NCBI RefSeq assembly: GCF_000025945.1
Contig: NC_006138.1
Span: 420,001 to 452,000, forward strand
DNA length: 32,000 nucleotides
Source of the DNA: Desulfotalea psychrophila LSv54
GTDB taxonomy: Bacteria; Desulfobacterota; Desulfobulbia; Desulfobulbales; Desulfocapsaceae
Direction of reading: 5' to 3'
The position numbers and the translations under genes were made by a program. Positions 7,477 to 32,000 of the stretch are shown one piece after another; the stretch's first letter is position 1; each line of letters opens with the position of its first letter. The notes under the pieces are model-generated. The model had not been told where the DNA came from. It did not search any database and saw only the letters and a program-made list of their open reading frames with translations.

Positions 7477-7706
7477 ATTTTCCTCCGTTAAAGACGCTGC
7501 CCTGCAGCAATCTTAGGTTTGCCCCGCTATTCCTCTATTGAAGTGGCCTGAAAACAAGCAGAAACAGCATTTTGAGTAAAAAAAGCTGTTCCATACATTG
7601 TAGGTCAGTTATAAGATATTGTGTATGTAAATATTTTCCCTGACTCGTGATCGATCTGTATTTATCATGTTAATATGGCAATAAAAGGTAAAGAGGAGAG
7701 AAGAAC

Positions 7707-13961: not shown

Positions 13962-14020
13962 TGAACAAAAAAAGGGCGCAATTCTGGGAATTGTGCCCTG
14001 AGTAGATGGTTGAGGTCGGC
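13962..14020 (-). repeat. att-like/terminator repeat, copy A (most diverged)
   Basis: An A-run is followed by the hairpin AGGGCGCAATTC/GAATTGTGCCCT (13973-13999) and then TGGTTGAGGTCGG (14007-14019). Read on the minus strand this is a hairpin plus T-run terminator directly downstream of the 14057 stop. Confidence 0.6.
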
Positions 14021-14056
14021 ATCAACACTGAGTTGCCCCAGAATGCCTGTTAACTT

Positions 14057-14473: not shown

Positions 14474-14542
14474 AATTTCACCTCTGCTCTGTAAAAGTTA
14501 ACGCCAAATGTATGAAAAAGCTTAAAAACCAGCCTATTTTTT

Positions 14543-15145: not shown

Positions 15146-15337
15146 AAAATCTCCTCTAAATTGATTTTCACAACCAAGGCCCCTCATGGTTCATAGTACC
15201 TCTAAAAGCGTCTTTTCGACTTCTATGAAACAACTGAACGAGAAACAATGCAAGCTTTTCTCAACCTCTTAGTTCTCCTGAGAAGGGAAAGTGAAGTTCT
15301 ATGTACATGGTGACTTTGCTTTTCTACTTACCTGTCT

Positions 15338-15430
15338 TGCCACCCAGTTTACCGACAAGGGGCTGGGCTTCCCGTCGTCCTGGAAATTATTCGCTTATGG
15401 GGCGATTTGCTCAAGGTGGAGATCAGGTAA
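15338..15430 (+). pseudogene. relic of a histidine-kinase C-terminus (HATPase_c G2 box)
   Basis: 'ccacccagtttaccgacaaggggctgggcttcccgtcgtcctggaaattattcgcttatggggcg...gtggag' parallels 6018-6105 of the intact kinase. It translates as GAGLPVVLEIIRLWG..VE, against GRGLGLPVVLGIIRSWGGWIGVES in the intact gene. There is no upstream ORF and an indel is present. Confidence 0.65.
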
Positions 15431-15775
15431 GAATACCTGAAAAGGTTAGTACAGGTTTATGGATAAACAGTTCAGGCTAACATGTTAGAATAAATGCAAC
15501 AAATCCTAGTTCACGAAGATCGATATGTGGTATCTTTGTTCTTGGGTGAATTGGCAGTAATTTTTTGCTTTCCATTAAACAAACCTTGGACTGAAGTGCA
15601 AGATCGGAAGCCCCATCTCCAACTCACTCACTTTTCAAATTTTAATCTGCTGTACTTACTGTACCAATCAATCATCAATTTCTCGGAACTACAACAAAAG
15701 TGCTGTAGGTTGGCCAAGTTACACACTCACAAAAACTTTTTATAACCTTGGCTAATTTAAACATTGAGGTGCAAA

Positions 15776-17848: not shown

Positions 17849-17863
17849 AGAATGGATTGATTT

Positions 17864-19150
17864 ATGAGTAACTATTTAACAGATGATACAAAGGCAATAA
17901 TCCTGCTTTGCGGATTCTTTGGAAAAGACAGCTCTACCAAGCCATTGTCGCAGGGAGATTACAACAAGCTTGTTGATTGGTTGATCAGTTCTGGCATGCG
18001 ACCAAAAGATTTGCTACAGCAAGAAAACATCGACCCAGCAGCAAAAGGATCAGGAATATACCAACAACGGTTAGAGGCCTTGCTCGGACGTGGAGTTCAA
18101 CTAGGCTTCGCCGTTGAGGAGTGGCAGCGTAATGGTATCTGGATTATTAGCCGAAGTGATACTGACTACCCAACACGATACAAAAATCATTTGGGTAAGC
18201 AAGCTCCGCCATTGCTTTTTGGTGTTGGTGATCGCTCGTTACTAACTGGTGGTGGTCTCGCGATCATAGGTTCTCGAAATGTAGATGAAATAGGCGGGAA
18301 TTTTACACGAGAGGTAGGTGCATTATGTGCTCAGAATAGGATGCCTGTCGTGTCAGGTGGTGCCCGTGGTGTAGATCAGTTTTCGATGACAGCGGCACTT
18401 GATGCCGGGGGCATGACTATTGGAGTTCTTGCCGATAGCCTTCTGAAAAAGAGCCTGGAACGTACTGCGCGTAAAGCAATTGCAAGGGGAAGGCTACTAC
18501 TCATTTCTGCTTGTCACCCCAATGCACGGTTCACCGTTGGAACCGCTATGGGGCGAAATAAGCTTATTTATGCCATGGCTGATTATGGTCTGGTTGTAAG
18601 CGCCGAACATAAAAAAGGCGGAACTTGGGCTGGGGCAGATGAAGAGTTAAAACGAGAACACTCTATTCCTGTGTTCGTGAGGCAAGGGAACGATGTCCCA
18701 CTCGGCAATTCAAAGCTTTTAGGCTTAGGTGCAATTGCTTGGCCAGACAAGGTTGACCATCAAAATCTAAGGGGACAGCTTACTGAGCTTTCGTCCCAAT
18801 GTGCCCAAAAGAGTACTCAGAAAAATATGAGCCTACTCGACTTTCAAGAGAGGCAAAAAGAACCGGCCAAGGAGCTCCCTAAAGCAGAGAGTATCGAATT
18901 AACCGAGTCTTCCAATGTTGTTGAAGATACTGCTGCAAAACACTCAGTCACTACAGTGTATGAAACTGTTTTGCCCCTCATATTAGAAAAGCTTGAATCC
19001 CCCACAACGGTTGACGAACTAATATCATCGCTGGATGTGGTTAAAACACAACTCAATGTATGGTTGAAAAAAGCACTTGAGGAAAAAAGAGTGGTTAAGC
19101 TGACACGTCCAGTAAAATATCAAAGGATTAGTTCGAAAGAACAGACGTAA
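17864..19150 (+). CDS. DprA/Smf-like (SLOG Rossmann) protein with a C-terminal winged-helix-like tail
   Basis: Begins 15 nt after the RecQ::PRTase stop. Carries 'YPTRYKNHLGKQAPPLLFGVGD', 'GLAIIGSRN', 'VVSGGARGVDQ', 'TIGVLADSL', 'MGRNKLIYAMAD' and 'KKGGTW', the DprA core order. An acidic linker leads to 'TTVDELISSLDVVKTQLNVWLKKALEEKRV'. Confidence 0.9.
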   Translation: MSNYLTDDTKAIILLCGFFGKDSSTKPLSQGDYNKLVDWLISSGMRPKDLLQQENIDPAAKGSGIYQQRLEALLGRGVQLGFAVEEWQRNGIWIISRSDTDYPTRYKNHLGKQAPPLLFGVGDRSLLTGGGLAIIGSRNVDEIGGNFTREVGALCAQNRMPVVSGGARGVDQFSMTAALDAGGMTIGVLADSLLKKSLERTARKAIARGRLLLISACHPNARFTVGTAMGRNKLIYAMADYGLVVSAEHKKGGTWAGADEELKREHSIPVFVRQGNDVPLGNSKLLGLGAIAWPDKVDHQNLRGQLTELSSQCAQKSTQKNMSLLDFQERQKEPAKELPKAESIELTESSNVVEDTAAKHSVTTVYETVLPLILEKLESPTTVDELISSLDVVKTQLNVWLKKALEEKRVVKLTRPVKYQRISSKEQT

Positions 19151-19406
19151 TACACTGATATAAATTACAGAAAATGCCCGGACAGAAAGTTTGTTACAGC
19201 TCACAATAAAGTTTGGGTTAACAACATAACCTATATCTTGAAAGGGATTTGCCTACGGCCCCCCCTTCTTTGACGTAGACCCGACCTAAAGGGCTCCCCA
19301 CTGTCCAGAGAGGCCGCCCAGGGGGCAATTGGAGGGATGTAAGAACAAGAGGACTACAGGGCACTGCCTGAAGACAAGCGGGGCTACTGCGGAAAGGGGA
19401 AGGCTA

Positions 19407-19492
19407 GGAAAAAAGCACAAAAAAGGGTCCAATCTCTAATTGAAGAAATTGAGCCCTGAGCAAATGGTGCGGAGGTCGGAAACGAATTAATC
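19407..19492 (-). repeat. att-like/terminator repeat, copy B
   Basis: 'aggaaaaaagcacaaaaaaggg..(degenerate hairpin)..ccctgagcaaaTGGTGCGGAGGTCGGaaacgaattaatc' aligns along its whole length with copy C (21053-21139). It lies just downstream of the 19553 stop on the minus strand. Confidence 0.6.
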
Positions 19493-19552
19493 AGCTAAGC
19501 CACTTAAAAGGCAGATTTTTATGACACACTTTTGGGTACAATCTGGATTATC

Positions 19553-19981
19553 CTACTCAGCGTCAGAATCTTTTTCACGGAGTACCACTGGTATTTGAGT
19601 TACTTTTTTCCAGCGTCCACCTTCACTTTTACAGGAGACTTCAAAAAAGTATCGGCCAGGGCCCGGGGCCTCTACACCTTCCACCCTTGTTCCGAAGTCT
19701 CCTCCATAGGTTCCTTCTTTAATTGTAAACTCTTGTTCACCTACTACCCCAATAGCCTTCTCTGCACTATCCAGCAAAGTTATTTTCACAGTGAACAACT
19801 CGTCACTATTTGCATCGCCCCCATCTCTGTACCACTTGGAAAAAAGCAAAAAACCTGGAAAGTGTGGACCTTCTTTTTTGTTGTAAAACCCAACTTTCAC
19901 CAGATCTTGAAGAGACATTAACCCTGTCAACTCATCTTTAATAACCCGTAAACATGCAACCGATGTTATATGTTTTGGCAT
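19553..19981 (-). CDS. hypothetical protein (142 aa), third gene of the hicAB operon
   Basis: The ATG lies 3 nt after the hicB stop. The sequence is beta-rich with no recognised motif. Confidence 0.65.
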   Translation of the reverse strand: MPKHITSVACLRVIKDELTGLMSLQDLVKVGFYNKKEGPHFPGFLLFSKWYRDGGDANSDELFTVKITLLDSAEKAIGVVGEQEFTIKEGTYGGDFGTRVEGVEAPGPGRYFFEVSCKSEGGRWKKVTQIPVVLREKDSDAE

Positions 19982-19984
19982 GCT

Positions 19985-20551
19985 TTAACCCCTAGATGAT
20001 AAATTAATAGTGTTAACAGAAGACTCAAAATCAGACTTAACAACAGAAGTCCACTCATTAAGTGATGCCCCTGGCGTTTGTCTTTTCTCATACACACCAG
20101 ATAAACTTACCTCTTGAAAAGTAGCCTCCTGCTTCATCAGTAGATCTTGATGGTGACCCATCATTTTTCCTTGATTCACAAGTATCTCATCCAACTTATC
20201 AGAAATGCCTGCTTCTTTTGCCACCCCACCAATTTGACTGACTATGTAGGTGTTAAGGGACACACCACTTTTTTCGGAACGTTCTACGAGTTCACGGTGA
20301 AGCTCTTTTCCCATACGGAGACGAACTTGCCCACTATACCCCTTATCTTCTTCTGGCTGCTTAACTTGAGGTAATGAAATCCCATTTTTCTTAAGTGAAT
20401 TAATAGCCATTTCAAGGACAATACGAGCATCCTTTAATGCCTCTTTTTGGGTTTCGCCAAAAGCAGACAAAAGAGGAAACTCAGGGAAAGTTACAACGAA
20501 ACAGCCATCTTCTTCACTCCAATGGATTTTTTTCGTAAATTTTTCTTTCAT
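19985..20551 (-). CDS. hicB: HicB-family antitoxin with an RHH DNA-binding module and a ~65-aa C-terminal extension
   Basis: 'IHWSEEDGCFVVTFPEFPLLSAFGETQKEALKDARIVLEMAI' is the HicB N-domain. 'GQVRLRMGKELHRELVERSEKSGVSLNTYIVSQI' is a ribbon-helix-helix. Separated by 1 nt from hicA. Confidence 0.85.
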   Translation of the reverse strand: MKEKFTKKIHWSEEDGCFVVTFPEFPLLSAFGETQKEALKDARIVLEMAINSLKKNGISLPQVKQPEEDKGYSGQVRLRMGKELHRELVERSEKSGVSLNTYIVSQIGGVAKEAGISDKLDEILVNQGKMMGHHQDLLMKQEATFQEVSLSGVYEKRQTPGASLNEWTSVVKSDFESSVNTINLSSRG

Positions 20552-20552
20552 T

Positions 20553-20825
20553 CTATAGCCCTTCCTCTAATGAGTTGTCGTCAATGAATTGCACAAACTT
20601 TCTTACCTGATAAATCTTAGCCATTTTTTTATCTCCTTCCCTCGGTTGGAGGTTCAAAAAATGGTATGGATCATCGTGACGTTTGTACTGTTCGTGACTG
20701 CCGTCTGTGTGGTCATGGACAAAACCAAACGCCTTAACTAGCTTTTTAAGCTCTTTAAAAGAGACACTCGCGGGACTCTTCCTCGCTTTCTTTAGCAAAT
20801 TTGTAATTTTATCTTTTTTTGACAT
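20553..20825 (-). CDS. hicA: HicA-family mRNA-interferase toxin
   Basis: From the internal Met the protein reads MSKKDKITNLLKKARKSPASVSFKELKKLVKAFGFVHDHTDGSHEQYKR..., the YcfA/HicA pattern including the conserved 'GSHEQY' His. The longer track ORF adds an unlikely hydrophobic leader. Confidence 0.8.
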   Translation of the reverse strand: MSKKDKITNLLKKARKSPASVSFKELKKLVKAFGFVHDHTDGSHEQYKRHDDPYHFLNLQPREGDKKMAKIYQVRKFVQFIDDNSLEEGL

Positions 20826-21052
20826 AAGCAGCAAACCGTCTCTTTTTACCATTAATGGTACCACATTTGGTACCAGATGAGCAATATATAGATATAGTGC
20901 ACTGTGCACAATGCGCCAAATTATATTGTAAAGTGACACAGCTCAACAAACAGTGGCGTTTACTTACATTAAAAGCCCACAAAACATACATTTTTCATCC
21001 AATCATTCAATAGTACCATATACAGAATAGATAATACCGGCACTACCTCAAG

Positions 21053-21139
21053 AGGAAAAAGCACAAAAAAAGGGCGCAATTTCTATTTCTAGAAATTGCG
21101 CCCTAATCAATTGGTGCGGAGGTCGAATTCGAACTAATC
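21053..21139 (-). repeat. att-like/terminator repeat, copy C (best preserved)
   Basis: Perfect 14-bp hairpin AGGGCGCAATTTCT/AGAAATTGCGCCCT (21071-21104), preceded by an A-run (a T-run on the minus strand), then TGGTGCGGAGGTCG (21112-21125). On the minus strand this 14-mer reads CGACCTCCGCACCA, like an acceptor 3' strand plus discriminator plus CCA. Confidence 0.65.
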
Positions 21140-21253
21140 CTGCAAACCCTTTATTCATGGGTAACAAGGAGAATTGAAAAAAATCAACACCTTCAAATAC
21201 ACACGAAAATACACACAGAGAAATACTGCTCTTTTGCTCATCTGTTAAGGTCG

Positions 21254-21302
21254 TCTTCCTCCTAAGCAGAGGTCGCGCGTTCGAATCGCGCCGGAATCAC
21301 CA
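21254..21302 (+). tRNA. 3' fragment (~49 nt) of a tRNA-Arg(CCU) gene: anticodon arm to CCA, with no 5' half
   Basis: Anticodon arm TCTTC/CTCCTAA/GCAGA (anticodon CCT), variable GGTC, perfect T-arm GCGCG-TTCGAAT-CGCGC, acceptor 3' strand CGGAATC, discriminator A and CCA (21300-21302). The required 5' strand GATTCCG is absent from the preceding 100 nt. Confidence 0.75.
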
Positions 21303-21310
21303 GCCATTAA

Positions 21311-21346
21311 AGGTGCTTACGTTTTTCACTGTAAGTGCCTTTTTTG
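21311..21346 (+). terminator. rho-independent terminator following the tRNA fragment
   Basis: 10-bp stem AGGTGCTTAC/GTAAGTGCCT (two G-U pairs), a 10-nt loop, then TTTTTTG. Confidence 0.7.
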
Positions 21347-21474
21347 TTTTTGGCTTTGTGACATCACGATGACATCATATTTTGTGATTTGCTTTTAATA
21401 TGTTAGCGTGGAATTTTCGTATGCTTAACAGGAGAAATAAATCACCATACATATTTAAATAATTGTGAGAAAAC

Positions 21475-21972
21475 ATGACTCAAAATTTCCCAAATTTATT
21501 AAAAAGAAACCTTTGGCATGTGACTAGCAGAGACAGATTCTTGAGTATGCAGTCCTCTGGTGCAATTCTCAGGTGTCCCCCTATTGCGGATTCAGAGCGT
21601 TGGGCAACCTCTCAAGGCCGAGAGCATTGGCCATTAGTAAGATATCTTGGTGGAATAAGTCTTTTTAATTTCAACGATTTTGATCCTGAATTATATACTC
21701 AAACTTACCCAATGTCATCTTGGCGCTCTTTTGTGCCCTCATGTCACCGATTTACTGAAAGTATTTGGATAGAGATAGATAAAGAAGCTATTATTGATAG
21801 TTTGCTTTTTGAGAAGGACCTAAAACAAAGAGTGGCTGAAAGGAATCTTTGGTGTCATAACAGGATGCCTTTGATTGAAATCGCATGTCTATGTGATATT
21901 GATATTGATAATTTTCTCAATGTTTTCTTGCATGATACCCAGGTGCTTGATTTTGTACCTTATGATGGCTAG
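21475..21972 (+). CDS. hypothetical protein (165 aa); weak ADP-ribosyltransferase-fold-like pattern
   Basis: Clean ORF in an AT-rich context. It has N-terminal 'NLWHVTSRDRFLSMQSSGAIL' (an H-x-T/S start as in ART-fold proteins) and C-terminal 'AERNLWCHNRMPLIEIACL'. The assignment is speculative. Confidence 0.55.
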   Translation: MTQNFPNLLKRNLWHVTSRDRFLSMQSSGAILRCPPIADSERWATSQGREHWPLVRYLGGISLFNFNDFDPELYTQTYPMSSWRSFVPSCHRFTESIWIEIDKEAIIDSLLFEKDLKQRVAERNLWCHNRMPLIEIACLCDIDIDNFLNVFLHDTQVLDFVPYDG

Positions 21973-21989
21973 GCATTTTACATAGTGAT

Positions 21990-22538
21990 CTATTTTATGT
22001 TGTAGATGCTGGCGCGTGAAACCCCGTATTCTTTGGCCAGTTCCGTAGGGCTGGTTCCCTTTGCTCTCTTTTCTTTAATTTCTGCTTTCTGAGTGCCAGA
22101 TAATATAGCTTTTCTACCAAGGTGCTTGCCATCAGCCTTAGCCTTTGCAATCCCTGCAAGCTGACGCTCTTTCCTCAGGTTCGTTTCAAATTCTGCAAAG
22201 ACTCCCAACATTTGCAAAAAAGCCCTACCGCTGGCGGTGGCTGTATCTATCGCTTGATCAATAATTTCAATAGTCGCACCTTTGCTTTCAAGCTCCTGGA
22301 CGATCTTTGATAAATCCAATACGTTTCTTGCTAGTCGGTCAAGCTTCCATACTACGAGTTTGTCACCCTCATGAATCATGTCTAAGATAAGTTGCAAGAC
22401 TCCACGTCCAGCTGTGGTTGTACCTGACTTCTTTTCTTCCCTGTACACACCCTCTGGATATTTTGCCTGTAGCTTCTGCTTTTGGAGACCTGTGTCTTGA
22501 TCTGTTGTTGATACTCGACCATAAAGAAAAATATTCAT
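21990..22538 (-). CDS. small serine recombinase (resolvase/invertase family)
   Basis: MNIFLYGRVSTTDQDTGLQ... contains the catalytic Ser motif 'YGRVST.DQ'. 'VVWKLDRLARN' is present, and the C-terminal HTH is 'TSPTELAKEYGVSRASIYN'. Confidence 0.9.
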   Translation of the reverse strand: MNIFLYGRVSTTDQDTGLQKQKLQAKYPEGVYREEKKSGTTTAGRGVLQLILDMIHEGDKLVVWKLDRLARNVLDLSKIVQELESKGATIEIIDQAIDTATASGRAFLQMLGVFAEFETNLRKERQLAGIAKAKADGKHLGRKAILSGTQKAEIKEKRAKGTSPTELAKEYGVSRASIYNIK

Positions 22539-22559
22539 TCCACGCCCTCTGTTTCTAAA

Positions 22560-22680
22560 AAGTGTCATTATTTGTATAAAAACATCTTAGACCTTTCTGG
22601 AAACAGTGTCAACAATATAAAAACAGACCTTTATGACGCATATTTTAAGGGTGTCAGAAAGGTATACCTTTTTGACGCTT
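22560..22680. promoter_or_regulatory. res-like recombination site upstream of the resolvase gene
   Basis: TGTCA-type half-sites occur at 22563, 22606 and 22652, with inverted CGTCA half-sites ending at 22638 and 22677. They include the 24-bp imperfect palindrome GTCAGAAAGGTA|TACCTTTTTGAC (22653-22676). The gamma-delta/Tn3 resolvase half-site consensus starts with TGTC. Confidence 0.5.
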
Positions 22681-22688
22681 GGTGTGAT

Positions 22689-23378
22689 TTATGGCAGAGA
22701 ACTATTAGACCAGTTGAGATGAGGATGGTTTTGTTGTGTGTCGAAGATGTGGTTTTTATTTTCTTCGTCTAGCTCTATAGGTAGGTCGGCCCAAATTGAG
22801 AGATTATTATTCCATTCGCTTTCATAAAAATTTTTAAATATATATTTAATGAAAGTGCCAAAGCTCATAGCGTGGCCCACTCCCATTCGACATGAACTTG
22901 CTTGGAAATGTAAATGTGAAGCTGGATGATCTATAGTTTGCTGCTCAACATCAAAATCGAAACGCATAGGAGACCGGAGGACAAGGTACTCTTCCCAGTT
23001 TGACATATACAAATCTAATGCTCCAAGTGGCGTTTCATTCTCTATATCATCGTTAGGAATCAGTAAAGGGCATGGCCAATACCATAGACTGTGCTTTTTT
23101 AGCTTACCTCTTTTAAATGTATAGGAAACTCTGATAAACGCACCATCTTTGAGAATCGCATGAAATGCATTGTTCTCCAATATTGAACGGTATTGAAATA
23201 ATTTACCAAATGCACCATCAGCATTGTAACAGGCACCTCTTTCATGCCTGCCCCACGTTATCATCTCGGACTCATTATCTTGCTGAAGCACTGGTATGTT
23301 GTAAAAGTACAACAAATTCCTTTCTGAAAGAATTTTAAGTATATTGATAATGGCACATTGAGTCTTCTTTACTGTCAT
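22689..23378 (-). CDS. hypothetical protein (229 aa) translationally coupled to the upstream helicase; His-rich motif 'HPASHLHF'
   Basis: The ATG lies 3 nt after the helicase stop. No domain is recognised with certainty; membership of DUF2290 is a hypothesis only. Confidence 0.75.
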   Translation of the reverse strand: MTVKKTQCAIINILKILSERNLLYFYNIPVLQQDNESEMITWGRHERGACYNADGAFGKLFQYRSILENNAFHAILKDGAFIRVSYTFKRGKLKKHSLWYWPCPLLIPNDDIENETPLGALDLYMSNWEEYLVLRSPMRFDFDVEQQTIDHPASHLHFQASSCRMGVGHAMSFGTFIKYIFKNFYESEWNNNLSIWADLPIELDEENKNHIFDTQQNHPHLNWSNSSLP

Positions 23379-23381
23379 AAC

Positions 23382-25508
23382 TTAGCTTTGATTTGGTTTA
23401 GTTGAGGTTTGATTTTTCCCTAAGCTTTCCAATAAAGATTGCAATGCAGCAGAATTACTAGGAGACAAGGTTCCATCTTCAATTAATTTGAGGATTCCTT
23501 TTGCTGATTCTTCAGCTTTACGAATTTTTTCTTTCTCTTCAGGTGTACGATCTCTGTTTATCAATCTTAATTCTGCAAGTTCTCCTTTCGTTGGAACATG
23601 GAACTTCAGCTTATAAGAATTGTCCACGGTGCGTTGGATTTCATCAATTAGGATGTCCATATTACGACCATACCCACATAGACGCACCCATGCACGAGAT
23701 CGTGTTATAGCTGTGAACAAAGTGTTGCGTAACTTAATTAATTCATACCCTTGTGCGCAATAATTTGAATTTGCAAGATAAACCATGGGAGCTTCATTTC
23801 CCTTTGCTCGGTATATACTAGAAACTACAACTGAATTACGAATAAAGAAAACATCTGACCTTGAAGATACTCCAGCAAGATGACTATCTATTCCATGTCT
23901 TTGTAATGATTGAGCAAGTAAAGGGTATTTTGTTTTTGCTGTTAATGCATTTGGTAATATTATTAGAATATCATCAGGGTCAAGCTCATCCTCAGTGATA
24001 TTTTTGTTGATTTGTTCTGCTATCCATTCATACTGTGCAATTTCATCCTCAAACTTTTTCGTAATAACAGCATCTTCTTTTGTCAATAAGTCATCAAAAA
24101 ACCTAGGGCATGAATCGCTTCGCCGACTGAGTGTTACATCAGAGTCAAAATTTAAATTTCCGCTATCTATTTGATACCCGATCTCTTGCCAAAGTGACAG
24201 TTCATCAAAGAGTTGAACAAGACCATCGTCACGATAGATTCCAAACCCTAGAGCATGAGCTAAAGTCAAAGCCCATGGAGTATTTCTGTAGCAAATTGGT
24301 AAAATAATATCTTGCTGCGGCGAGTTTTCAACATTATTAATAGAAACATTCCCATTAAATAGATGCTGTACAGAAGTCATCTGAGTATTATTTAGATTTT
24401 GAAGTTCATCGTATGCCCAAACAATTCTTTTAGGTGATTTTGTTGCTAGATAAACAAGTTGAAAAAATGGCACTGGAAGGTCTTGCGCTTCGTCTATAAG
24501 TACAGCATCGTACAGTTCTACTGGTTGCGACTTCGCATAAGTTAGTAATTCTCCACAGGCACCATGAAAAGCATTATTGTAACCATATTGATTTTTTGCA
24601 GTACCAAAATCCATTGCTGGAACATTAAGTGAGTCAGCGATAGTTGAATAAATCCCAGAAGCACTGTAACTACCCCAAGCATGCAAAATATGGAGTTTTT
24701 CAAAATTTGGTTTATCTCCAGAATGCTCAATAGAAAATCTTTCTACTAAATCAAAAAATTGTTGGCTTAGAGATCGAGTATTAAATGTAATTGCAATATC
24801 CCACTCAGGATGCTCTGCATGTAGGTACGCAGCTTTTAACGCCAGTACTACTGTCTTTCCTGATCCAGCTAACCCCCGAACTCTTTGCGCCCCTTCTGGT
24901 GTCTCTATTGCCGCTTTCTTTTGCCATTGATCCAAATTTGCTATTTGTACTTCAAGTTTTTTTAAAATAGCTCCACGTGAATCAGTTCCTTTTACATTTG
25001 TTCTTTTTTTAATCGGCTTTATTGTTGTGACCCTTTGGATGGCAGCAACTAGCGATCGAAAAAAAGATTCGTCAACAGGGGCGCACTTTGTGAATATTAA
25101 GCTAATGTTTTTGGGATAAGCAAAATAATATTTATCATTGGTTTCATTAGTAAAGCTGTTGCTAGCTGGAAAAAACGAAACTATATTTGCAGTTACACCT
25201 AAACGCCTTCCTTCTCTTAATGCGTCGTGTCTGCCTAAACTACCTTCAATTGCATAAGCTAAACTGTCTTGTTGGGCTTGAAGCTCTTCAACACAAGTTT
25301 CTATTGGTGGAAAATTAAAGGCTACCAACCCAGGCACCTTAGAAAGTAGCAAGGCCTGAACGGTTGTTGAATTATCGGCAGACGCCATTATTGGATACCC
25401 AAGGTACAAGGTTCCATCAATAGCAAGATTTTGTAATGTCTCCGAAAGTATTTTAGCCGCAGTTGAATTTTTAACATTTCCCCAAACTATATCTAACGCC
25501 ATTCCCAT
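23382..25508 (-). CDS. SF1 (UvrD/Rep-like) helicase with a ~200-aa unassigned N-terminal domain and a C-terminal extension
   Basis: Walker A 'GLAGSGKTVV', Walker B 'VLIDEAQDL', and C-terminal 'IYRAKGNEAP' and 'LFTAITRSRAW' (UvrD_C-type motifs). The start may be the second ATG at 25502, which has better SD spacing. Confidence 0.85.
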   Translation of the reverse strand: MGMALDIVWGNVKNSTAAKILSETLQNLAIDGTLYLGYPIMASADNSTTVQALLLSKVPGLVAFNFPPIETCVEELQAQQDSLAYAIEGSLGRHDALREGRRLGVTANIVSFFPASNSFTNETNDKYYFAYPKNISLIFTKCAPVDESFFRSLVAAIQRVTTIKPIKKRTNVKGTDSRGAILKKLEVQIANLDQWQKKAAIETPEGAQRVRGLAGSGKTVVLALKAAYLHAEHPEWDIAITFNTRSLSQQFFDLVERFSIEHSGDKPNFEKLHILHAWGSYSASGIYSTIADSLNVPAMDFGTAKNQYGYNNAFHGACGELLTYAKSQPVELYDAVLIDEAQDLPVPFFQLVYLATKSPKRIVWAYDELQNLNNTQMTSVQHLFNGNVSINNVENSPQQDIILPICYRNTPWALTLAHALGFGIYRDDGLVQLFDELSLWQEIGYQIDSGNLNFDSDVTLSRRSDSCPRFFDDLLTKEDAVITKKFEDEIAQYEWIAEQINKNITEDELDPDDILIILPNALTAKTKYPLLAQSLQRHGIDSHLAGVSSRSDVFFIRNSVVVSSIYRAKGNEAPMVYLANSNYCAQGYELIKLRNTLFTAITRSRAWVRLCGYGRNMDILIDEIQRTVDNSYKLKFHVPTKGELAELRLINRDRTPEEKEKIRKAEESAKGILKLIEDGTLSPSNSAALQSLLESLGKNQTSTKPNQS

Positions 25509-25664
25509 GCCTCATTTTATTTGAAAAGAAAAATTACATTTCCAAATATTTTGAATAATCTATTATAACTACTCGTCTGCATAGTTCTTCACCTACTTAC
25601 ACAGACAATTTCTTTTGACAAAAAAAACCAACGATCGGCCTCTTGGCTTCAATCAACACCGAAG

Positions 25665-26348
25665 TTATTCCTTCACAAACTGATCTCCATGCCGGATTTC
25701 ATTGCATTCTAGAAAGTGCTTGTAGTCAGATACCCAAAAATTAATTTCTGATGATCTAACACTATACTTCTTCAAAATCATTTCTATTTGATGGGGGCTT
25801 GGTGCCATCCAGTTATCAAAGTCCAATAGATCCTGCATCTCACTAGCAGCTGCATTCTGGTTTTCAGTTGTTTTAGAATTAATAACGCTGGCTTGCTCCC
25901 TACCCATCACAACCCTTCTGATAATTCTATGGTAGATTACCGTAATTCCTTTTTTCCAATCTTTTTCTGCATTTTCAATTTGAGCATCTGTTGCTCCGAT
26001 CTGCCTTAAAGCGCAAATAATATTATCATGGATTTGGAGTCTTTTGGCCTGAGACATACCATCGATAAAATTACCTGCTATTAAGTCGGTTAGCGTAGCT
26101 TCAGAATTGGCCACAGCGACATTTCTCAGCTGCTCTATAGTTGCTGACGCTTCGTCAACCTTCTCTTTCATCTTAGCTTTCACCGGCCCTAATGAAAGTT
26201 CTGCTAGCTCGCTTAGCCTTGATACAAATGTCACAAATGCACCACATAATGCAGCAGCCCAACTAGTTGACTGATCTCCAAAATAAACACCAATAATTGG
26301 TGGGACAACCAAAGTAAAGACAATGCCAATCCAAAAAAGTAATTTCAC
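25665..26348 (-). CDS. two-TM membrane protein with a cytoplasmic helical domain (227 aa)
   Basis: GTG start with an AGGAGA SD. Two N-terminal hydrophobic helices (LLFWIGIVFTLVVPPIIGVYF and WAAALCGAFVTFV) are followed by a helical soluble domain. Confidence 0.65.
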   Translation of the reverse strand: MKLLFWIGIVFTLVVPPIIGVYFGDQSTSWAAALCGAFVTFVSRLSELAELSLGPVKAKMKEKVDEASATIEQLRNVAVANSEATLTDLIAGNFIDGMSQAKRLQIHDNIICALRQIGATDAQIENAEKDWKKGITVIYHRIIRRVVMGREQASVINSKTTENQNAAASEMQDLLDFDNWMAPSPHQIEMILKKYSVRSSEINFWVSDYKHFLECNEIRHGDQFVKE

Positions 26349-26831
26349 TCTTTTCTCCTCTCAACAGCCCAAATCCACAAATCACATTTCTATATTGCTG
26401 TTTAATCAGACATAACAATCCACTAGCATACTCTGTGTAAGTTTACAATCTTATTATAGCTTGAATGTCGTAGAATACCTTTAATAAGTACGAACATACG
26501 GTCTAGGAATATCCACCTGACGTTGCTCCAAGCAAAATAACTTGCAACACAACCCCTGTCTAGTTTATGTTGTTTTCGTTGCTGGCAAAATCCAGCAGCC
26601 GAGTTTGGACGCTCGGACGCAAACGGTGGATACATGCCACCACTATTGGTGGTTTTTTTATGCCCTTTACGGGTATACTGTATCCGTCGCATAGTCGCTT
26701 TTGGGTGACTGTGTGGGAGACCTTCGGGTCTGCCGATTCCGTTTGATCGGTCGTCCAACCCGCATAGTCGCCCTTTTTTTTGTTTGGACGCAAAAAATGG
26801 GCTTAGACCACTTCCAAACGGAGCTAGTACC

Positions 26832-27095
26832 ATGCGTAAAGACCATATTGCTGTAGACCACCTCTCTCAACTCCCTGAAGATTTTCTCCTAGCTATCCAA
26901 AAACCAGAAGGACTCCCCATCAATCCTATCGGGATTGCCCTGGAGCGTTGCAAATCCATTCTCAACAGTTTGCAATCATGCGGAGAAGAACCCCACTTCA
27001 CGATTCAACATAGCGATGTCTTAGGTTGCCTTAATGCTATCGAGGCCAATATCCATATGGTTGGCAAGATGATCAACCATGCAGTGGAGGGCTAA
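26832..27095 (+). CDS. small hypothetical protein (87 aa), first gene of the replication module
   Basis: ATG with a GGAG SD 8 nt upstream. Its stop lies immediately before the next gene's ATG (27098). Confidence 0.45.
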   Translation: MRKDHIAVDHLSQLPEDFLLAIQKPEGLPINPIGIALERCKSILNSLQSCGEEPHFTIQHSDVLGCLNAIEANIHMVGKMINHAVEG

Positions 27096-27097
27096 CC

Positions 27098-28036
27098 ATG
27101 AACAAGGGATGGGTAAAAATAGACAGAGAACTCCTAGAACATTGGAGCTGGAACGGTGCGATTTTTTCAGAAGGTCAGGCTATTGTCGATCTGCACTTAC
27201 GGGCCAGCCACAAAACAAGAACAATTCGCCTACGTAGTGGTTTAGTGACTATTCACCGTGGACAACTGGCAAGATCCGAGAACACCCTCGCCAACGATTG
27301 GGGGTGGAGCAGAGGCAAGGTAAGGCGCTTTTTATCTCTGCTTGAACGTGACAACATCATCGGCCAGCAAAAGAACAACCAAACGACCATCATAACTATC
27401 CTCAATTACGATGTAAAAGAGGATAGCAAGAACACCACTCCTGCCCAAGGCGGTACAGCATGTGGTATACGAATAAGAAAGAAAGAAGAAAGAAGTAATA
27501 AAAGAAAAGAAAAAAAGAACACAATCCCCATCGGCGATCCTCTGCCCGACAAAGCACAAACAGTCCACCGTGAGCTTATCCCTTCTGGCTTCGCTTTTGA
27601 TACTTGGACAAAGATGCTTGCCTACCTGCGAACAAAGGGGGCCTTGGCTGGCGGAAGAATCAAAGCAATTGTTACTGAGATTGCCAAAGCAAAGGCTCTA
27701 AGCTTTTCTCCGGCCGACTGTTTAGCCTGTATGCTGCATCATGGCTGGCGTGGGTTCAAAGCCACTTGGTTATCAACCAGTGCCTTCTATCGTGAACGTA
27801 TGGCCCAAGCCGCCAACCATCATTGGCAAGATGAAACAAAGCGAACACGAAAGAAAATAGAGAGCTATGAGAAGCCACAGCCCACCAACAGGCGTCGCTG
27901 GTTATTCGATGAGAGCTATATGCTCAAGCTTGAAGGCAGGATCACACAGAAGCAACGAGACGACATCATAGCGGGGATACTCGATATCACCTCTTTCCTG
28001 TCGAGAAAAAGCACTGCTCATTGCCAAAGAGCATAG
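27098..28036 (+). CDS. replication-initiator-like protein (N-terminal winged-helix, Lys-rich linker)
   Basis: 'WVKIDRELLEHWSW....EGQAIVDLHLRASHKTRTIRLRSGLVTIHRGQLARSENTLANDWGWSRGKVRRFLSLLERDNII' follows the pattern of phage/plasmid replisome-organizer (DnaD-like) N-domains. It sits next to an ori-like region and a primase. Confidence 0.65.
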   Translation: MNKGWVKIDRELLEHWSWNGAIFSEGQAIVDLHLRASHKTRTIRLRSGLVTIHRGQLARSENTLANDWGWSRGKVRRFLSLLERDNIIGQQKNNQTTIITILNYDVKEDSKNTTPAQGGTACGIRIRKKEERSNKRKEKKNTIPIGDPLPDKAQTVHRELIPSGFAFDTWTKMLAYLRTKGALAGGRIKAIVTEIAKAKALSFSPADCLACMLHHGWRGFKATWLSTSAFYRERMAQAANHHWQDETKRTRKKIESYEKPQPTNRRRWLFDESYMLKLEGRITQKQRDDIIAGILDITSFLSRKSTAHCQRA

Positions 28037-28095
28037 CTTAAAATCGTGCCCTGTTTCGCTGTCTTGTTCTTTGAATATGAAATAGCTGTAACACG

Positions 28096-28404
28096 CCCTC
28101 TGGCTTCGCTTTTGATATCTGAACAAAGATGCTTACCTACCTGCGGACAAAGGGAGCCTTGGCTGCCAGAAGACGCAGAGTAGTTGTTACTGAAATTACC
28201 AAGACAAAGGCTCTGTTTTTTTTGCCAGCCGATTGCGTGGCCTGTATGCCCACAACGGTTGGCGGGGCTTTAAGATCACAGCACCTTTGTTCAGGAGCAT
28301 AACTTAAGGCCTTGCTCTGTTTCATAGAGCTTGTTCTTTTGAGAATAAAGCAAAGGGCGTGATAAACAACCTGCTATAACCGTAACACGCCTCTGCTGCT
28401 TCCC
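28096..28404 (+). pseudogene. decayed partial tandem duplicate of the 3' half of the initiator-like gene
   Basis: 28096-28285 parallels 27581-27775 ('c.ctctggcttcgcttttgata..tg.acaaagatgctt.cctacctgcg.acaaaggg.gccttggctg...'). 28293-28350 parallels the gene end at 28027-28085, and 28371-28404 restarts the unit. No reading frame is maintained. Confidence 0.65.
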
Positions 28405-28989
28405 ATGCCTACGCACAAGCTAAACGTCCTGTGTTACGTGGTGGGCCTCTGGTAAGCTACCCTGCTATTTGACACGAACAACAGAAAAGACGAAAGCCCT
28501 TAATTCGACCTGTGCTTGCCGATTACGAACAGAACCATGCCAGCATACCAGCGAAGCAACCAGCAGCGCACACAGGTCAAGACAGCGTGCCTAAACTTAT
28601 TTCTCCCTATACCCTCGCCCCTTATTATTAAACTCCAAGAGAAATACAAAGAGATTGAGCTTCTACAAGACCACAGCAGCCAAAGCTCAACTGGATACCA
28701 GCAATCAGGGCAAGGTAGCAAAAAGAGGCGCGGGTCCTTCTGGGGAAAAATGAAGTTGCACGGGTGGAAAGAGCTCGACGCTCGTACCTCAAAAATATTT
28801 TGTCTCAGCTGGAAAAGTGGAAAATGTAATTTCTTCAATGAAAAACCCATATGCTTTGCCGGCACATAACCATCCTGAGAATATTGCTCCTCACGAAATT
28901 TTTATGCCACAAAAGCCAACTTGCCTGATTCGTAAAACAGGACAGGATAAAACAAAGATAACGTAATTGATTGGAAGTTCTCCCAGACC

Positions 28990-29340
28990 AGACACGAAGC
29001 GGGACGCCATGGGACGGCACAAAACCAGCCACAGGACGGCTTAAGACATTGAAATAAAAGTAAAATACTGCTGGGACGGGAGAGACCCCCTTTTACCATA
29101 TATATATATAAACAGTATATAGAAGATATCCAAAATCCCAAACACAATATGTATATATATAAAACGTAGTCGCAACCGTCCCCTTAGTATACTTATATAT
29201 AATATATAATTATATTATATATTTATATATATAGTAAGTGGGACGACAGAGGTATTTTTCTGGACAGGCGGGACGGTGGCGCCTGACCAAAAAGGAGCAT
29301 AAATATAAACAGAGCACTTTTCCCCTACAGGGACAGACAG
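28990..29340. promoter_or_regulatory. candidate replication origin: GGGACGG iterons flanking two (TA)n-rich tracts
   Basis: GGGACG(G) occurs at 29001, 29011, 29073, 29240 and 29270. Near-copies are AGGACGG at 29033 and GGGACAG at 29330, with one inverted copy CCGTCCC at 29176. TA-rich tracts lie at 29097-29160 and 29190-29235. The region sits between the convergent initiator-like and primase genes. Confidence 0.5.
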
Positions 29341-29459
29341 CAAACGGGATCTTAAATGGCATCAAAGATCTTCGTTTCTTTCTTTGAAAAAAGCCCTTGT
29401 TTTATTACTTCAAGGGGGCAGGGTTGTTTCTATCTCCCGTGTATCCCCCCATCTGACAA

Positions 29460-32000
29460 TCAAGCTATCTGGTGTGGTGGCGCTTCAAGGTTACGAAATT
29501 TTTCTAAATCAAATTTCCATGCCTTACGCTGCACGCTATGGCTCTCGTTTTCGCTGGTGGGGAAGCGGTGATTTGTGCCATGAGAAATATAAGCAGGATG
29601 GCTACGGAGTGCTTTTTGCAGATCCTGAATTCTGGGCGGTTGCAATCCATTGTTATGCAGCAATCTTATCAACTCCTGCAAAGAAAAATACAGGCTATTG
29701 TAGTCAATCTTCGTTCTTCCTTGTGGCAAAGCCACTTCATGCCAATATTTTTTTACTTGGTCACCTTCAAGACTAAACACCTGCTCAAAGAAGGTTGATG
29801 CCTCATTGATTTCAAGCTCGGCCGAGCTCTGTTCTTTTGCCATCCCCACCTGCTCGACATGGGAGAAAATATCTATATCCTCAACCTCAAACAATTTGCA
29901 AAAGAGACGATGAAAAGCCAAAACAATGGCATGATTATTCCGGATACGCTCCTCTTGTACGAGCTCAAGATCGGCAATAGCTATTCGGTATTCTTCATAC
30001 CAGTTCGCCTCAATTATACCTCTCTTCCTGAGAACCTCTACAATCACGGTGGCCAGCTCTTCCTTTGCCATGTTATTAAGCTCATCAAACGCACATCGAG
30101 TATGTCCGTCCAGATCTTTCTCTTTAAAATTCAAACTTACCACCCTCTGTTTTTCAGCTTTTTGATTGAACGGCTCATTGTTCTGAACAAAAAGCAAGGC
30201 GCCCAAAAAAGGATTCTCTGCTGTCTCAAGCGTATTGGTAAACTTAGCCTGAACTTGCAAGCTCCCTGTGTTATAGGCAGTCAGCAAGATTGAATAGTCA
30301 AAACTCCGCTCGTTGCGCTGGTTATCCTCCAAGAGAGCTGTGAAAATCCCAGAAAACCCCGCCATTTTACGAGCAAGGCCTTTCTTGGTGTTGAGTTGCG
30401 AAAGTGGCAAGCCTTCTACATCACGCCCTTGCACGGATTGTAGCTTAGTTGCCAGAGCACTTTTCCCCGCAGCAGGAGCTCCATATAGTGACAGGAAAGG
30501 AAAAAAATTCTCACGCGCTTTGATCTGGTTGACAAACCAACTGGCCAGAGTCCACGAAAAAGCCATGGCGCCATTGGCCCCCCATGCAGCATAGAAAAGG
30601 CTATAAATCCTCCCCACGTCGACAGAACGCCCGACAAGAGGGGTTATAGCTTTATCTCCTGCTTGTGGTGCTGGACTTAACATTGAACTATGGTCTAAGC
30701 GAAAGAGCCCCCTCCTGTCCTTCTGCAAAAGCCTTCCTTTGGGGTCGATGGCGAAACTGTCAAAAACATACCAATTGGTTTGCGGATCGTAACCAGCAAC
30801 GGGGATCTGCCGAACCTCAGGAGCCTTACTGGTTGCTATCATCGTTGCAAGTGCCGTTATAGCATTATTCTTACCTTCAAAATTAACCTTGGCACTACTC
30901 AGCAAAAAAGCACCAAAATCACGCCCTGCTGCTAGCGTCTTACCCGAAGCAACACAATCCACAGGCCGACCGGCCAAAGGTGTTACACGAAGCTGATAGA
31001 GGTATTCCCTCTGCTTTTGATTGCCTATATTGATGAAAGAAACTACATCAATAACAAACAACCCCACACGCTCGGTCTTTGCTTGGGTAGCTTCTCCACG
31101 TATTCGCACCTCGCTGTACCAGGTACAACCATCGAAAACAAATAGCCCCGCTGCATTCCCAAAATATTCATAATATAATTTACCGTAATGATGGGCTGAT
31201 TCAGCAAGAGAAAGATTCGCATTGCACCTATAGCCCTGTTCATTCTCTTTAAAAAGCTGTTCTCCCTCGCCTCTTGCACGTTGCAAAATATCATTCCAAT
31301 CTAGCCCTTCGGGTGGCATGATTGCTTGTGCAGCCGAAAAAGCGCCAAGATATTTTTTGGTAGCCAGTGTTCCTGCCTTGTCATTATCAAAAGCACAGAT
31401 CAATTGATACTTCTCCAAACCCTCAAGCTTGGCAGGATCTTGCCCCGATGACAAAACAGCTATTGCCTGTACTTCCATCTGAAGAAGGCTTAACGCGTCA
31501 ATAATTCCTTCAACAACCGCCACTGGTCGCGATGCTTCAAGCGGCCTTGCAGGATGCGTCCACCATAGCCCCGAGGTAGAGCCGTTGTTATGAGTCTTCC
31601 CTTCACCCTGAGGGGGATTAAAAAGCCTGCCATTGTAGACATCTTTACCTTGAGAGTCTTTCCCCACGGGAAACATCACAGCCCCCGTTTTAAGCCCCTG
31701 CCTAGTGTTCTTCCAGTATCTAAAGTCAAGCCCTTCCAAAACGGCAGCCGACAGACCACGCCCCTTCAAGTATTCACGGGCTGGTTTATGCGGATCACTC
31801 TTAGTGGGCTTGTACTCCTGCTCAATATCAAAGGTGATATTAAACAGATCACGGGTTTTCGTTTTGGCTCCACAGCTATTGGCACGATTGCAATTAATCG
31901 AATAGGGTTCCTGCTGCACAGCCCATGCGGTCTTGTCTCCACACACTGGGCAAACAAGATTAGCAATAGTTCGTCCATTCTCTTTGGTGCGGGCAGAGCA
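29460..32000 (-). CDS. bifunctional primase/helicase-like replication protein (Zn-finger, TOPRIM, P-loop NTPase), 5' end outside the window
   Basis: 'CPVCGDK...C.....C' is a Zn-finger. TOPRIM motifs 'VAVVEGIIDALSL' and 'CAFDNDKAG' are present, with Walker A 'LYGAPAAGKSAL' further on. The layout resembles P4 alpha. The frame stays open upstream of the track start (31946) to the window edge (...RTIANLVCPVCGDK), so the true start is probably beyond 32000. Confidence 0.85.
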   Translation of the reverse strand, partial: CSARTKENGRTIANLVCPVCGDKTAWAVQQEPYSINCNRANSCGAKTKTRDLFNITFDIEQEYKPTKSDPHKPAREYLKGRGLSAAVLEGLDFRYWKNTRQGLKTGAVMFPVGKDSQGKDVYNGRLFNPPQGEGKTHNNGSTSGLWWTHPARPLEASRPVAVVEGIIDALSLLQMEVQAIAVLSSGQDPAKLEGLEKYQLICAFDNDKAGTLATKKYLGAFSAAQAIMPPEGLDWNDILQRARGEGEQLFKENEQGYRCNANLSLAESAHHYGKLYYEYFGNAAGLFVFDGCTWYSEVRIRGEATQAKTERVGLFVIDVVSFINIGNQKQREYLYQLRVTPLAGRPVDCVASGKTLAAGRDFGAFLLSSAKVNFEGKNNAITALATMIATSKAPEVRQIPVAGYDPQTNWYVFDSFAIDPKGRLLQKDRRGLFRLDHSSMLSPAPQAGDKAITPLVGRSVDVGRIYSLFYAAWGANGAMAFSWTLASWFVNQIKARENFFPFLSLYGAPAAGKSALATKLQSVQGRDVEGLPLSQLNTKKGLARKMAGFSGIFTALLEDNQRNERSFDYSILLTAYNTGSLQVQAKFTNTLETAENPFLGALLFVQNNEPFNQKAEKQRVVSLNFKEKDLDGHTRCAFDELNNMAKEELATVIVEVLRKRGIIEANWYEEYRIAIADLELVQEERIRNNHAIVLAFHRLFCKLFEVEDIDIFSHVEQVGMAKEQSSAELEINEASTFFEQVFSLEGDQVKKYWHEVALPQGRTKIDYNSLYFSLQELIRLLHNNGLQPPRIQDLQKALRSHPAYISHGTNHRFPTSENESHSVQRKAWKFDLEKFRNLEAPPHQIA

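Follow-up and report, generated by a model that had tools for sequence, protein, structure and literature searches.

Two adjacent genes on the minus strand of the Desulfotalea psychrophila chromosome very probably constitute, as predicted here from profile matches and gene order, a canonical two-gene Helicase+DUF2290 anti-phage module (Rst_HelicaseDUF2290 in DefenseFinder; 'Helicase' and 'DUF2290' in PADLOC). They lie in a stretch of 32,000 nucleotides, the window, to which all positions refer (Table 1). The system was reported by Rousset et al. (2022, Cell Host Microbe) and is active against phage T7 (PMC9122126). In P. aeruginosa MPAO1, sequential deletions that removed it with other barriers made the cells more susceptible to subsets of phages (bioRxiv 10.64898/2026.09.16.752016). 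For a homolog on a Lactococcus plasmid, no protection was seen with the phages tested (PMC11381338). The searchable literature yielded no report of a mechanism, and neither family of the pair has a solved structure. The D. psychrophila pair is of a kind already known, real but ordinary.

Gene layout and family membership

Table 1. Features of the helicase-DUF2290 locus and its upstream neighbour, in window positions.
Feature	Position	Strand	Basis or remark
TM227 membrane protein, 227 aa	25665-26348	minus	ORF list
Spacer upstream of helicase, 156 nt	25509..25664	minus	presumed own promoter and ribosome-binding site of the pair
SF1 helicase, 708 aa from first ATG, probably 706 aa	23382..25508 (end includes stop codon)	minus	PADLOC PDLC03002, Pfam, NCBI identity, AF2 model, PDB neighbours
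Helicase N-terminal domain, residues 1-175	24984..25508	minus	kept in all homologs; no assigned family
Walker A / helicase motif I GLAGSGKT	24852..24875	minus	translation and alignment
Helicase/DUF2290 spacer, 3 nt	23379..23381	minus	sequence read
DUF2290 protein, 229 aa, partner subunit and presumed effector	22689..23378	minus	Pfam PF10053, PADLOC PDLC02998
DUF2290 conserved core RFDFDVEQQTIDHPASHLHFQASSCR	22887..22964	minus	translation; holds invariant R139, F140, D141, H151, H155, R164

A sequence-only reading had proposed a helicase-based defence pair on the Helicase+DUF2290 pattern and left open whether the smaller protein belongs to DUF2290, which could not be confirmed by eye. The profiles settle the point. 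The 229-aa protein matches Pfam PF10053 at E=5.6e-100 (333.3 bits against a cut-off of 25, profile positions 2-204 of 204) and PADLOC PDLC02998 (DUF2290) at E=7.8e-79, and is identical to the NCBI entry 'DUF2290 domain-containing protein [Desulfotalea psychrophila]'. The fallback of an unassigned helicase-partner system drops out, the partner being DUF2290. The helicase matches the system-specific PADLOC model PDLC03002 'Helicase' at E=3.8e-230 over profile positions 2-690 of 707. The matches of both proteins span their full length at E<=1e-79 and are not due to chance. Membership in the system is assigned through these profile models rather than by direct comparison with the validated K. pneumoniae proteins. 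Both families, their order, tight coupling and sizes (about 700 and 230 aa) agree with the known system (PDLC03002, PDLC02998/02999), as does carriage by a mobile element or defence island.

The three open reading frames of the locus are borne out on the minus strand, and the motifs picked out by eye, GLAGSGKT, LIDEAQDL, YRAKGNEAP and FTAITRSRAW in the helicase and HPASHLHF and RFDFDVEQ in its partner, all occur in the translations. The two genes are co-oriented with the helicase first, and their junction reads ...AGC TAA gtt ATG..., so that three nucleotides separate stop from start, as had been claimed; the short spacer is consistent with translational coupling. The helicase is 100% identical to the 706-aa NCBI protein 'DEAD/DEAH box helicase [Desulfotalea psychrophila]' (P0182). 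A GAGG Shine-Dalgarno sequence stands 1 nt ahead of the first ATG and 7 nt ahead of the second (M3). Because this spacing favours M3 and the NCBI protein has 706 residues, translation probably begins at 25502 rather than at 25508.

The helicase is an SF1 enzyme of a system-specific clade. In Pfam it matches UvrD_C_2 at E=5.3e-13 and, marginally, UvrD-helicase. An alignment of 43 sequences shows no variation in motifs I, II, III, V and VI, including G215-T219, DEAQD (339-343), YDELQ (366-370), YRN (407-409), KGNE (569-572) and T599/T602/R603. With all SF1 catalytic motifs retained at this depth, the ATPase/helicase core is predicted to be active. The AF2 model (pLDDT 85.5) finds its best PDB neighbours by Foldseek among SF1 helicases, namely SLFN11/14, Dna2, PcrA, UvrD and Upf1. 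The N-terminal domain is a regular part of the protein, since in all full-length loci the tblastn alignments start within residues 1-5. It had been described as unassigned and stays so: residues 1-175 give no Pfam match (15 members) and no PDB sequence match even with a 15-sequence profile, all matches being at chance level. Its predicted topology of helix, three strands, helix and strand may resemble a degenerate restriction-endonuclease-like (NERD-type) fold, a likeness of secondary-structure order and topology that does not amount to membership.

Linkage of the pair and its genomic neighbours

The helicase gene lies directly upstream of the DUF2290 gene in 20 of 20 related loci from at least seven phyla, four of them on plasmids; one of the 20 (L003) is a degraded remnant. 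The linkage holds in both directions. Starting from DUF2290, 15 loci were found, each with the helicase immediately upstream on the same strand; starting from three helicase homologs, five loci were reached, each with DUF2290 immediately downstream. The association of the 229-aa family with helicases in other genomes, which the sequence-only reading had singled out for checking, is seen at every related locus examined. These loci come mostly from contigs encoding homologs and from plasmid records; a profile scan of genome contigs with the DUF2290 alignment, using strict peptide patterns, contributed three. Across 13 related loci the two genes overlap by up to 35 nt or are separated by up to 7 nt. 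A single annotated gap measures 73 nt, and there the homology match begins upstream of the annotated start. Across 16 loci, helicase and DUF2290 show correlated divergence (Spearman 0.77), and DUF2290 is always the faster-evolving partner, with 25-48% identity against 40-63% for the helicase at the same loci. Judged from gene order and divergence, helicase and DUF2290 are an obligate, co-inherited and translationally coupled unit across phyla.

The flanking genes are different at each locus. Upstream of the helicase stand, depending on the genome, an AAA_23 ATPase, Methylase_S, a 907-aa protein of no known family, a methyltransferase, an integrase, BrnTA, RelE/HTH or a relaxase. This variability bears on whether the protein is a housekeeping repair helicase of the UvrD/Rep type that, together with an accessory protein, keeps a conserved chromosomal neighbourhood. 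Weak matches around UvrD/PcrA motif I point in that direction. The absence of synteny already refutes the idea at the level of gene neighbourhoods, and the low-GC island, the plasmid copies and a best profile that is the defence-system model (764 bits against 23 for UvrD) leave it with practically no probability.

The gene for the membrane protein TM227 lies 156 nt upstream of the helicase on the same strand, a spacing that was read correctly at the outset, and its membership in the system had been left open. Its first hydrophobic segment (residues ~3-23) passes the Kyte-Doolittle 19-residue threshold of 1.6 and is the only one to do so. Of the two N-terminal transmembrane helices originally described, the second (residues ~30-45) is weaker and below threshold in this copy; in many members of the family both segments are clear. 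The shared strand, the short distance, the common AT-rich block and the frequency of membrane proteins among defence-system effectors (PMC9122126) would suit a three-gene system in which TM227 serves, for example, as a membrane-disrupting abortive-infection effector of the pair. That arrangement is very improbable. No TM227 homolog occurs at any of the 20 pair loci, where the upstream gene differs every time, and neither helicase nor DUF2290 occurs at any of nine metagenome loci of TM227, a stand-alone family of 321 clusters without annotation. The three-gene order is therefore not conserved in homolog neighbourhoods, and as a conserved architecture it is effectively refuted; on these counts TM227 is an unrelated neighbour outside the helicase-DUF2290 unit.

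Members of the TM227 family, for which a nine-sequence alignment served in the pattern scan, adjoin genes for Mrr, AbiTii and a prophage repressor.

The spacer between TM227 and the helicase contains a T8 run, a TATAAT hexamer and the GAGG sequence. A promoter consensus scan found no more sites in it than in shuffled sequence. An intrinsic terminator was considered here and rejected, the hairpin before the T8 run being no better than shuffles (z=-0.23) and the consensus scan empty. It is mainly the non-conserved upstream gene that marks the pair as a separate transcription unit, and the spacer presumably carries its own promoter and ribosome-binding site.

DUF2290, a proposed mechanism and related helicase systems

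The AF2 model of DUF2290 is confident (pLDDT 93, pTM 0.90) and has no Foldseek match at E<=1e-3 in the PDB or BFVD; sequence and profile searches of the PDB are likewise empty. Resemblances to p32/gC1qBP, to UTRA/chorismate-lyase-like domains and to MHC platforms were set aside, with TM-scores of 0.2-0.3 at best and chance-level probabilities. In an alignment of 30 sequences with 24-51% identity, R139, F140, D141, H151, H155 and R164 are invariant, and in the model they fall on three adjacent predicted strands (138-143, 154-158 and 160-167). This R-F-D ... H-x3-H ... R constellation is a probable catalytic or metal site, as judged from conservation and the model. A His-Me-finger reading of the strand-strand-helix element at 154-184 was rejected: it is weakened by the helix that follows the 154-167 hairpin, which offers no conserved metal ligand. 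Since the model matches no nuclease or hydrolase fold in the PDB or BFVD, any enzymatic nature is putative. A tblastn search with DUF2290 against a phage collection gave no match, and no relative was confirmed when viral contigs were scanned for patterns from the DUF2290 and TM227 alignments.

A tentative mechanism can be sketched. The helicase and DUF2290 would form a complex in which the helicase, with its conserved N-terminal domain, acts as an ATP-driven sensor and translocase. It would load on phage replication or recombination DNA; the linear, end-rich DNA of T7-type phages is the known sensitive target. DUF2290 would be the effector licensed by the helicase, its Arg-Phe-Asp ... His-x3-His ... 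Arg cluster most likely forming a metal-dependent phosphoesterase (nuclease-like) site on a fold without a solved relative.

A reversed division of labour is possible, though it is somewhat less favoured, with DUF2290 as a non-enzymatic sensor or regulatory subunit for a phage protein or DNA structure and the helicase as the effector that displaces replication or transcription complexes or depletes ATP. The faster evolution of DUF2290 is what a subunit touching phage factors should show, and is frequent in effectors as well. Catalytic motifs are all kept in the helicase, and none of the folds in the PDB or BFVD lends DUF2290 a known catalytic identity. A variable recognition surface would be less likely than a catalytic or metal site to keep two His, one Asp and two Arg residues invariant down to 24% identity, which speaks against this division. 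A more ambitious version of the licensed-effector model is doubtful when taken as a whole: DUF2290 as an unrecognised fold with a new metal-dependent phosphoesterase/nuclease site (R139-F-D141, H151-x3-H155, R164), licensed by an SF1 helicase with a degenerate nuclease-like N-terminal sensor. Equally doubtful is a separate idea, that TM227 represents a stand-alone gene for membrane-based defence or exclusion that has so far escaped recognition.

The licensed-effector model takes Hachiman as its working analogy. HamAB consists of the nuclease HamA and the helicase HamB, in which the helicase detects the state of the DNA and frees or licenses the effector (PMC12278908). Both are two-gene systems of a helicase and a small partner. 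However, HamB is an SF2 helicase and HamA a DUF1837 nuclease, whereas the present locus encodes an SF1 helicase and has its two genes in the opposite order; there is no HamA or HamB model match in PADLOC, nor, at the cut-off given above, a PDB fold match for DUF2290.

Gabija (GajAB) is likewise built from an effector and an SF1 helicase, in its case the OLD/Toprim nuclease GajA and the UvrD-like GajB. PADLOC GajB matches to parts of the helicase are weak and local (E=5e-7 to 0.035) and lie several hundred bits below the Helicase+DUF2290 model. Unlike Gabija, the locus has no neighbouring GajA (ATPase-Toprim/OLD nuclease), and the helicase N-terminal domain is different. The closest Foldseek neighbours in the PDB are the C-terminal SF1 modules of Schlafen SLFN11 and SLFN14 (E=4e-14 to 3e-12 over ~650 columns), and among 15 N-terminal domains a single one shows a faint match to Pfam SLFN_GTPase-like (E=0.039). 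With no significant sequence similarity, TM-scores of 0.3-0.43 and PcrA, UvrD, Dna2 and Upf1 nearly equal, the Schlafen likeness is taken as a structural resemblance only.

Island setting and significance

The AT-rich setting noticed at first sight is confirmed, with a GC content of 0.365-0.386 at 22501-26000 against about 0.44-0.48 in the flanks. As had also been noted, the pair adjoins a resolvase with res-like repeats and lies near a phage-type replication module (primase/DnaD-like). The low-GC island further carries PsyrT/PsyrA, a PtuA-like ATPase and HicAB, and on the strength of these neighbours in the window the pair sits in a defence-rich mobile island of the chromosome. Megablast searches gave no match, either for the locus in E. 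coli genomes or for 14000-32000 in plasmids. The setting differs from that of the original report in its host, a member of the Desulfobacterota, and in being an island with a resolvase and replication module rather than an enterobacterial P4-like satellite hotspot. It lies outside the P2/P4 hotspots that were the context of discovery; such a location is not required by the detection models and is not a defining feature, because homologs occur in many other contexts.

Some related pairs reside on plasmids, small or conjugative, where genes for replication, partition and toxin-antitoxin systems are their neighbours, and others adjoin a relaxase, integrases or serine recombinases. Such company, together with the resolvase and replication module here and the unprotective lactococcal copy, could mean that the pair mainly serves its carrier elements through competition, exclusion or stabilisation and not host phage defence. 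This is unlikely. Anti-T7 activity has been shown experimentally, related pairs are also embedded in BREX loci, type I RM loci and other defence islands, and defence genes generally ride on mobile elements, so a mobile context does not discriminate.

The locus adds one more canonical Helicase+DUF2290 system, in a psychrophilic sulfate reducer, and the membrane protein is ruled out as a component; the wider value is modest. The surrounding island is shown to be a defence island with PsyrTA, HicAB, a PtuA-like ATPase and Helicase+DUF2290. For work on mechanism, the pair offers handles in its obligate coupling and correlated divergence, the intact helicase core, the conserved N-terminal domain and a set of invariant DUF2290 residues placed on a confident model without a fold match.

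Identity and layout of the gene pair

The locus is an already known kind of system, which standard tools detect with very high scores. The 229-aa protein, proposed as a possible DUF2290 member in the sequence-only reading, matches Pfam PF10053 with 333 bits (E=5.6e-100, positions 2-204 of 204) and the PADLOC DUF2290 model PDLC02998 (E=7.8e-79). The helicase is matched over positions 2-690 of 707 by PDLC03002, the system-specific helicase model of PADLOC (E=3.8e-230), beside which the local matches of the GajB, Nhi, AbiO and generic UvrD models are weak. The NCBI names for the 100%-identical D. psychrophila proteins are 'DUF2290 domain-containing protein' and 'DEAD/DEAH box helicase'. These profile matches, together with the linkage of the two genes, support the interpretation as a Helicase+DUF2290 defence pair.

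The layout is as it had been described from sequence. The ORF listing gives three co-oriented genes on the minus strand, with a spacer of 156 nt between the membrane protein gene and the helicase and of exactly 3 nt between the helicase stop and the DUF2290 ATG (...AGC TAA gtt ATG...). Every peptide motif that had been quoted is found in the translations, and the block is AT-rich (GC 0.365-0.386 versus ~0.44-0.48 in the flanks). The helicase probably starts at 25502, because a GAGG Shine-Dalgarno sequence is spaced for its second ATG and the NCBI protein has 706 residues, versus 708 in the ORF.

Features of the locus and its surroundings (window positions)
Feature	Position	Strand	Evidence or remark
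Two tandem near-identical 159-aa proteins	10681-11160, 11366-11845	-	low-GC edge of island
PtuA-like (Septu) AAA_15/AAA_21 ATPase	12550-13833	+	PADLOC PtuA E=8.2e-150; retron I-A ATPase models match too
Two unassigned ORFs	14057-14473, 14543-15187	-	near PtuA-like ATPase
PsyrTA-type defence/toxin-antitoxin pair, complete	15764-19150	+	PADLOC
HicA toxin / HicB antitoxin	19985-20939	-	between PsyrTA and resolvase
165-aa ORF	21475-21972	+	convergent with resolvase
Small serine resolvase	21990-22568	-	res-like repeats before gene
DUF2290 protein, 229 aa	22689-23378	-	ORF listing
SF1 helicase, 708 aa	23382-25508	-	ORF listing
Membrane protein, 227 aa	25665-26348	-	ORF listing, GTG start
DnaD-like/O-like initiator	27098-28036	+	PHROG 2514, E=4.7e-21
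Phage-type Toprim primase, 828 aa	29460-31946	-	PHROG 1139, E=2.3e-82

Linkage in other genomes and the upstream membrane protein

DUF2290 and the helicase adjoin in loci found from either side, which answers the question of linkage raised in the sequence-only reading. When DUF2290 relatives of 24-51% identity are used as the entry, a helicase homolog lies directly upstream on the same strand in every locus with upstream sequence. These loci come from metagenome contigs (L004-L011), MAGs of Vicinamibacteraceae, Phycisphaeraceae and Isosphaeraceae (L001-L003) and plasmids of Thioflavicoccus, Mycobacterium, Acinetobacter and E. coli (L021-L024). Conversely, DUF2290 is directly downstream in all helicase-found loci (Bacillus toyonensis, a human-gut metagenome and Maridesulfovibrio frigidus). 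The two genes overlap by up to 35 nt or lie up to 7 nt apart; at the single annotated gap of 73 nt the homology match starts upstream of the annotated DUF2290 start. Homolog alignments to the helicase start at residues 1-5 and the N-terminal domain is therefore integral to the helicase family. Across 16 loci, identity is 40-63% for the helicase versus 25-48% for DUF2290, the helicase being higher in every locus. The two identities are correlated (Spearman 0.77, p=5e-4, with two locus pairs near-duplicates), as fits a pair co-inherited as one unit.

The flanks of the pair vary in every case and include type I RM, BREX, AbiE, integrases, serine recombinases, a relaxase, toxin-antitoxin and plasmid replication genes. 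Housekeeping synteny is thereby ruled out, and the differing flanks agree with a mobile defence module.

On the Thioflavicoccus mobilis plasmid pTHIMO01 (NC_019941.1 73688-83368; L021) the pair is nested inside a BREX locus, downstream of brxC, with a DNA methyltransferase on one side and the PglZ gene on the other. The Isosphaeraceae MAG (L003) carries a degraded pair at 6648-7648, where the helicase (residues ~5-168) runs almost directly into DUF2290 from residue ~77. It looks like an internal deletion remnant.

The membrane protein had been left as a possible third member. It is a neighbour and not a component of the pair, since a homolog occurs in none of the 20 pair loci, and neither the helicase nor DUF2290 in any of the nine metagenome loci carrying its family (L012-L020). 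Pfam, PADLOC, PHROG and NCBIfam give no assignment. The family comprises 321 representative clusters (50% identity) at E<=1e-3 and 53 at E<=1e-30; nearly all members are stand-alone proteins of ~230 aa, and the GTG start is supported by their alignment from residue 1 onward. Members begin with a hydrophobic hairpin, end in a soluble domain and carry the conserved motif E-L-S-L-G-P-x-K-A-x-M. Of the two N-terminal TM helices described earlier, the first hydrophobic segment (residues ~3-23) is the only strong one in this protein; the second (residues ~30-45), clear in many relatives, is weaker here. In the metagenome loci the family lies near genes for, among others, an Mrr endonuclease, an AbiTii protein, a CI-like repressor and an HDOD protein. 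On its own, the membrane protein may act in defence or exclusion.

Predicted structures and mechanism

The AF2 model of DUF2290, made with 30 homologs, is very confident (pLDDT 93, pTM 0.90). Foldseek with this model against the PDB (to April 2026) and BFVD gave no match at E<=1e-3, the top matches having TM-scores of 0.1-0.3, and the predicted fold is apparently an orphan within these two databases. Ten positions are invariant in the 30-sequence alignment (P102, P104, R139, F140, D141, H151, H155, R164, F176 and F184); the near-invariant ones include D78, G79, H96, P152-A-S154 and C163. The charged and His residues lie on adjacent predicted strands (92-101, 138-143, 154-158 and 160-167). These residues would form a catalytic or metal-binding site, most likely that of a phosphoesterase.

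The SF1 motifs of the helicase (model pLDDT 85.5) are all invariant in the alignment, and the closest solved structures are the SF1 helicases SLFN11/14, Dna2, PcrA, UvrD and Upf1. Residues 1-175 have a predicted strand/helix order as in a restriction-endonuclease-like domain. The expected (D/E)xK place holds no conserved acidic or lysine residues (consensus ...VDALLVSxxxGLVAFxF), and profile searches with this domain returned no match backing any assignment.

In the PDB the helicase model comes closest to SLFN11 and SLFN14, antiviral Schlafens of vertebrates (Foldseek E=4e-14 to 3e-12, ~650 aligned columns); Dna2, PcrA and UvrD rank below them. One homolog has a faint Pfam SLFN_GTPase-like match in its N-terminal domain (E=0.039). 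The likeness to Schlafens is only suggestive.

Helicase+DUF2290 specifically inhibits T7 and is also present in Vibrio and Bacillus prophage hotspots (Rousset et al., PMC9122126). According to a review of 2023 (PMC10952713), the part played by the helicase domains in this system had not been explored. Later papers go no further than listing, deleting or testing the system; a plasmid copy from Lactococcus did not protect against the phages used for challenge (PMC11381338). The literature search found no mechanistic or structural paper on the system, and the PDB holds no sequence relatives of either family apart from the generic SF1 motif-I region of the helicase. A tentative working model can be patterned on Hachiman and Gabija. 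The helicase would sense phage DNA, translocate on it and license DUF2290 as the effector. The main mechanistic rival, equally tentative and only slightly less probable, exchanges these roles, with DUF2290 as sensor or regulator and the helicase as effector.

A defence island on a mobile element

The surroundings had been read correctly as a resolvase with res-like repeats and a replication module in low-GC DNA. The window starts with chromosomal genes (citrate synthase, TerC, a sensor kinase) and passes into low-GC island DNA from ~10 kb onward. The tandem 159-aa proteins have signal-peptide-like N-termini and a Cys-rich segment, with no match in Pfam, PADLOC or PHROG. No ORF of at least 60 aa follows the PtuA-like ATPase on the same strand, so that no HNH PtuB is obvious beside it; the gene is an orphan or else has a partner of an unrecognised kind. 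PsyrT (PADLOC E=2.5e-293) combines a RecQ-like helicase and a phosphoribosyltransferase domain in one fusion protein and is followed by PsyrA, a DprA/SLOG-like protein (E=1.5e-131). HicB is long (188 aa). For the 165-aa ORF, searches of Pfam, PADLOC, PHROGs and NCBIfam gave no match, and none of the loci retrieved carries a homolog.

From the DUF2290 stop to the resolvase gene runs a spacer of 120 nt (22569-22688), which contains a 12+12-nt palindrome at 22653-22676 (GTCAGAAAGGTA/TACCTTTTTGAC), more copies of a CAGAAAGGT-type half-site and a TTGACA-17-TAAGAT promoter-like site. It resembles a res site made up of several subsites. The initiator and primase are the replication module of a mobile element; the window contains neither an integrase gene nor a tRNA gene. 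The PtuA-like ATPase, PsyrTA, HicAB, the resolvase, the membrane protein and the initiator/primase share the island with the Helicase+DUF2290 pair, itself one of the modules of this mobile-element defence island.
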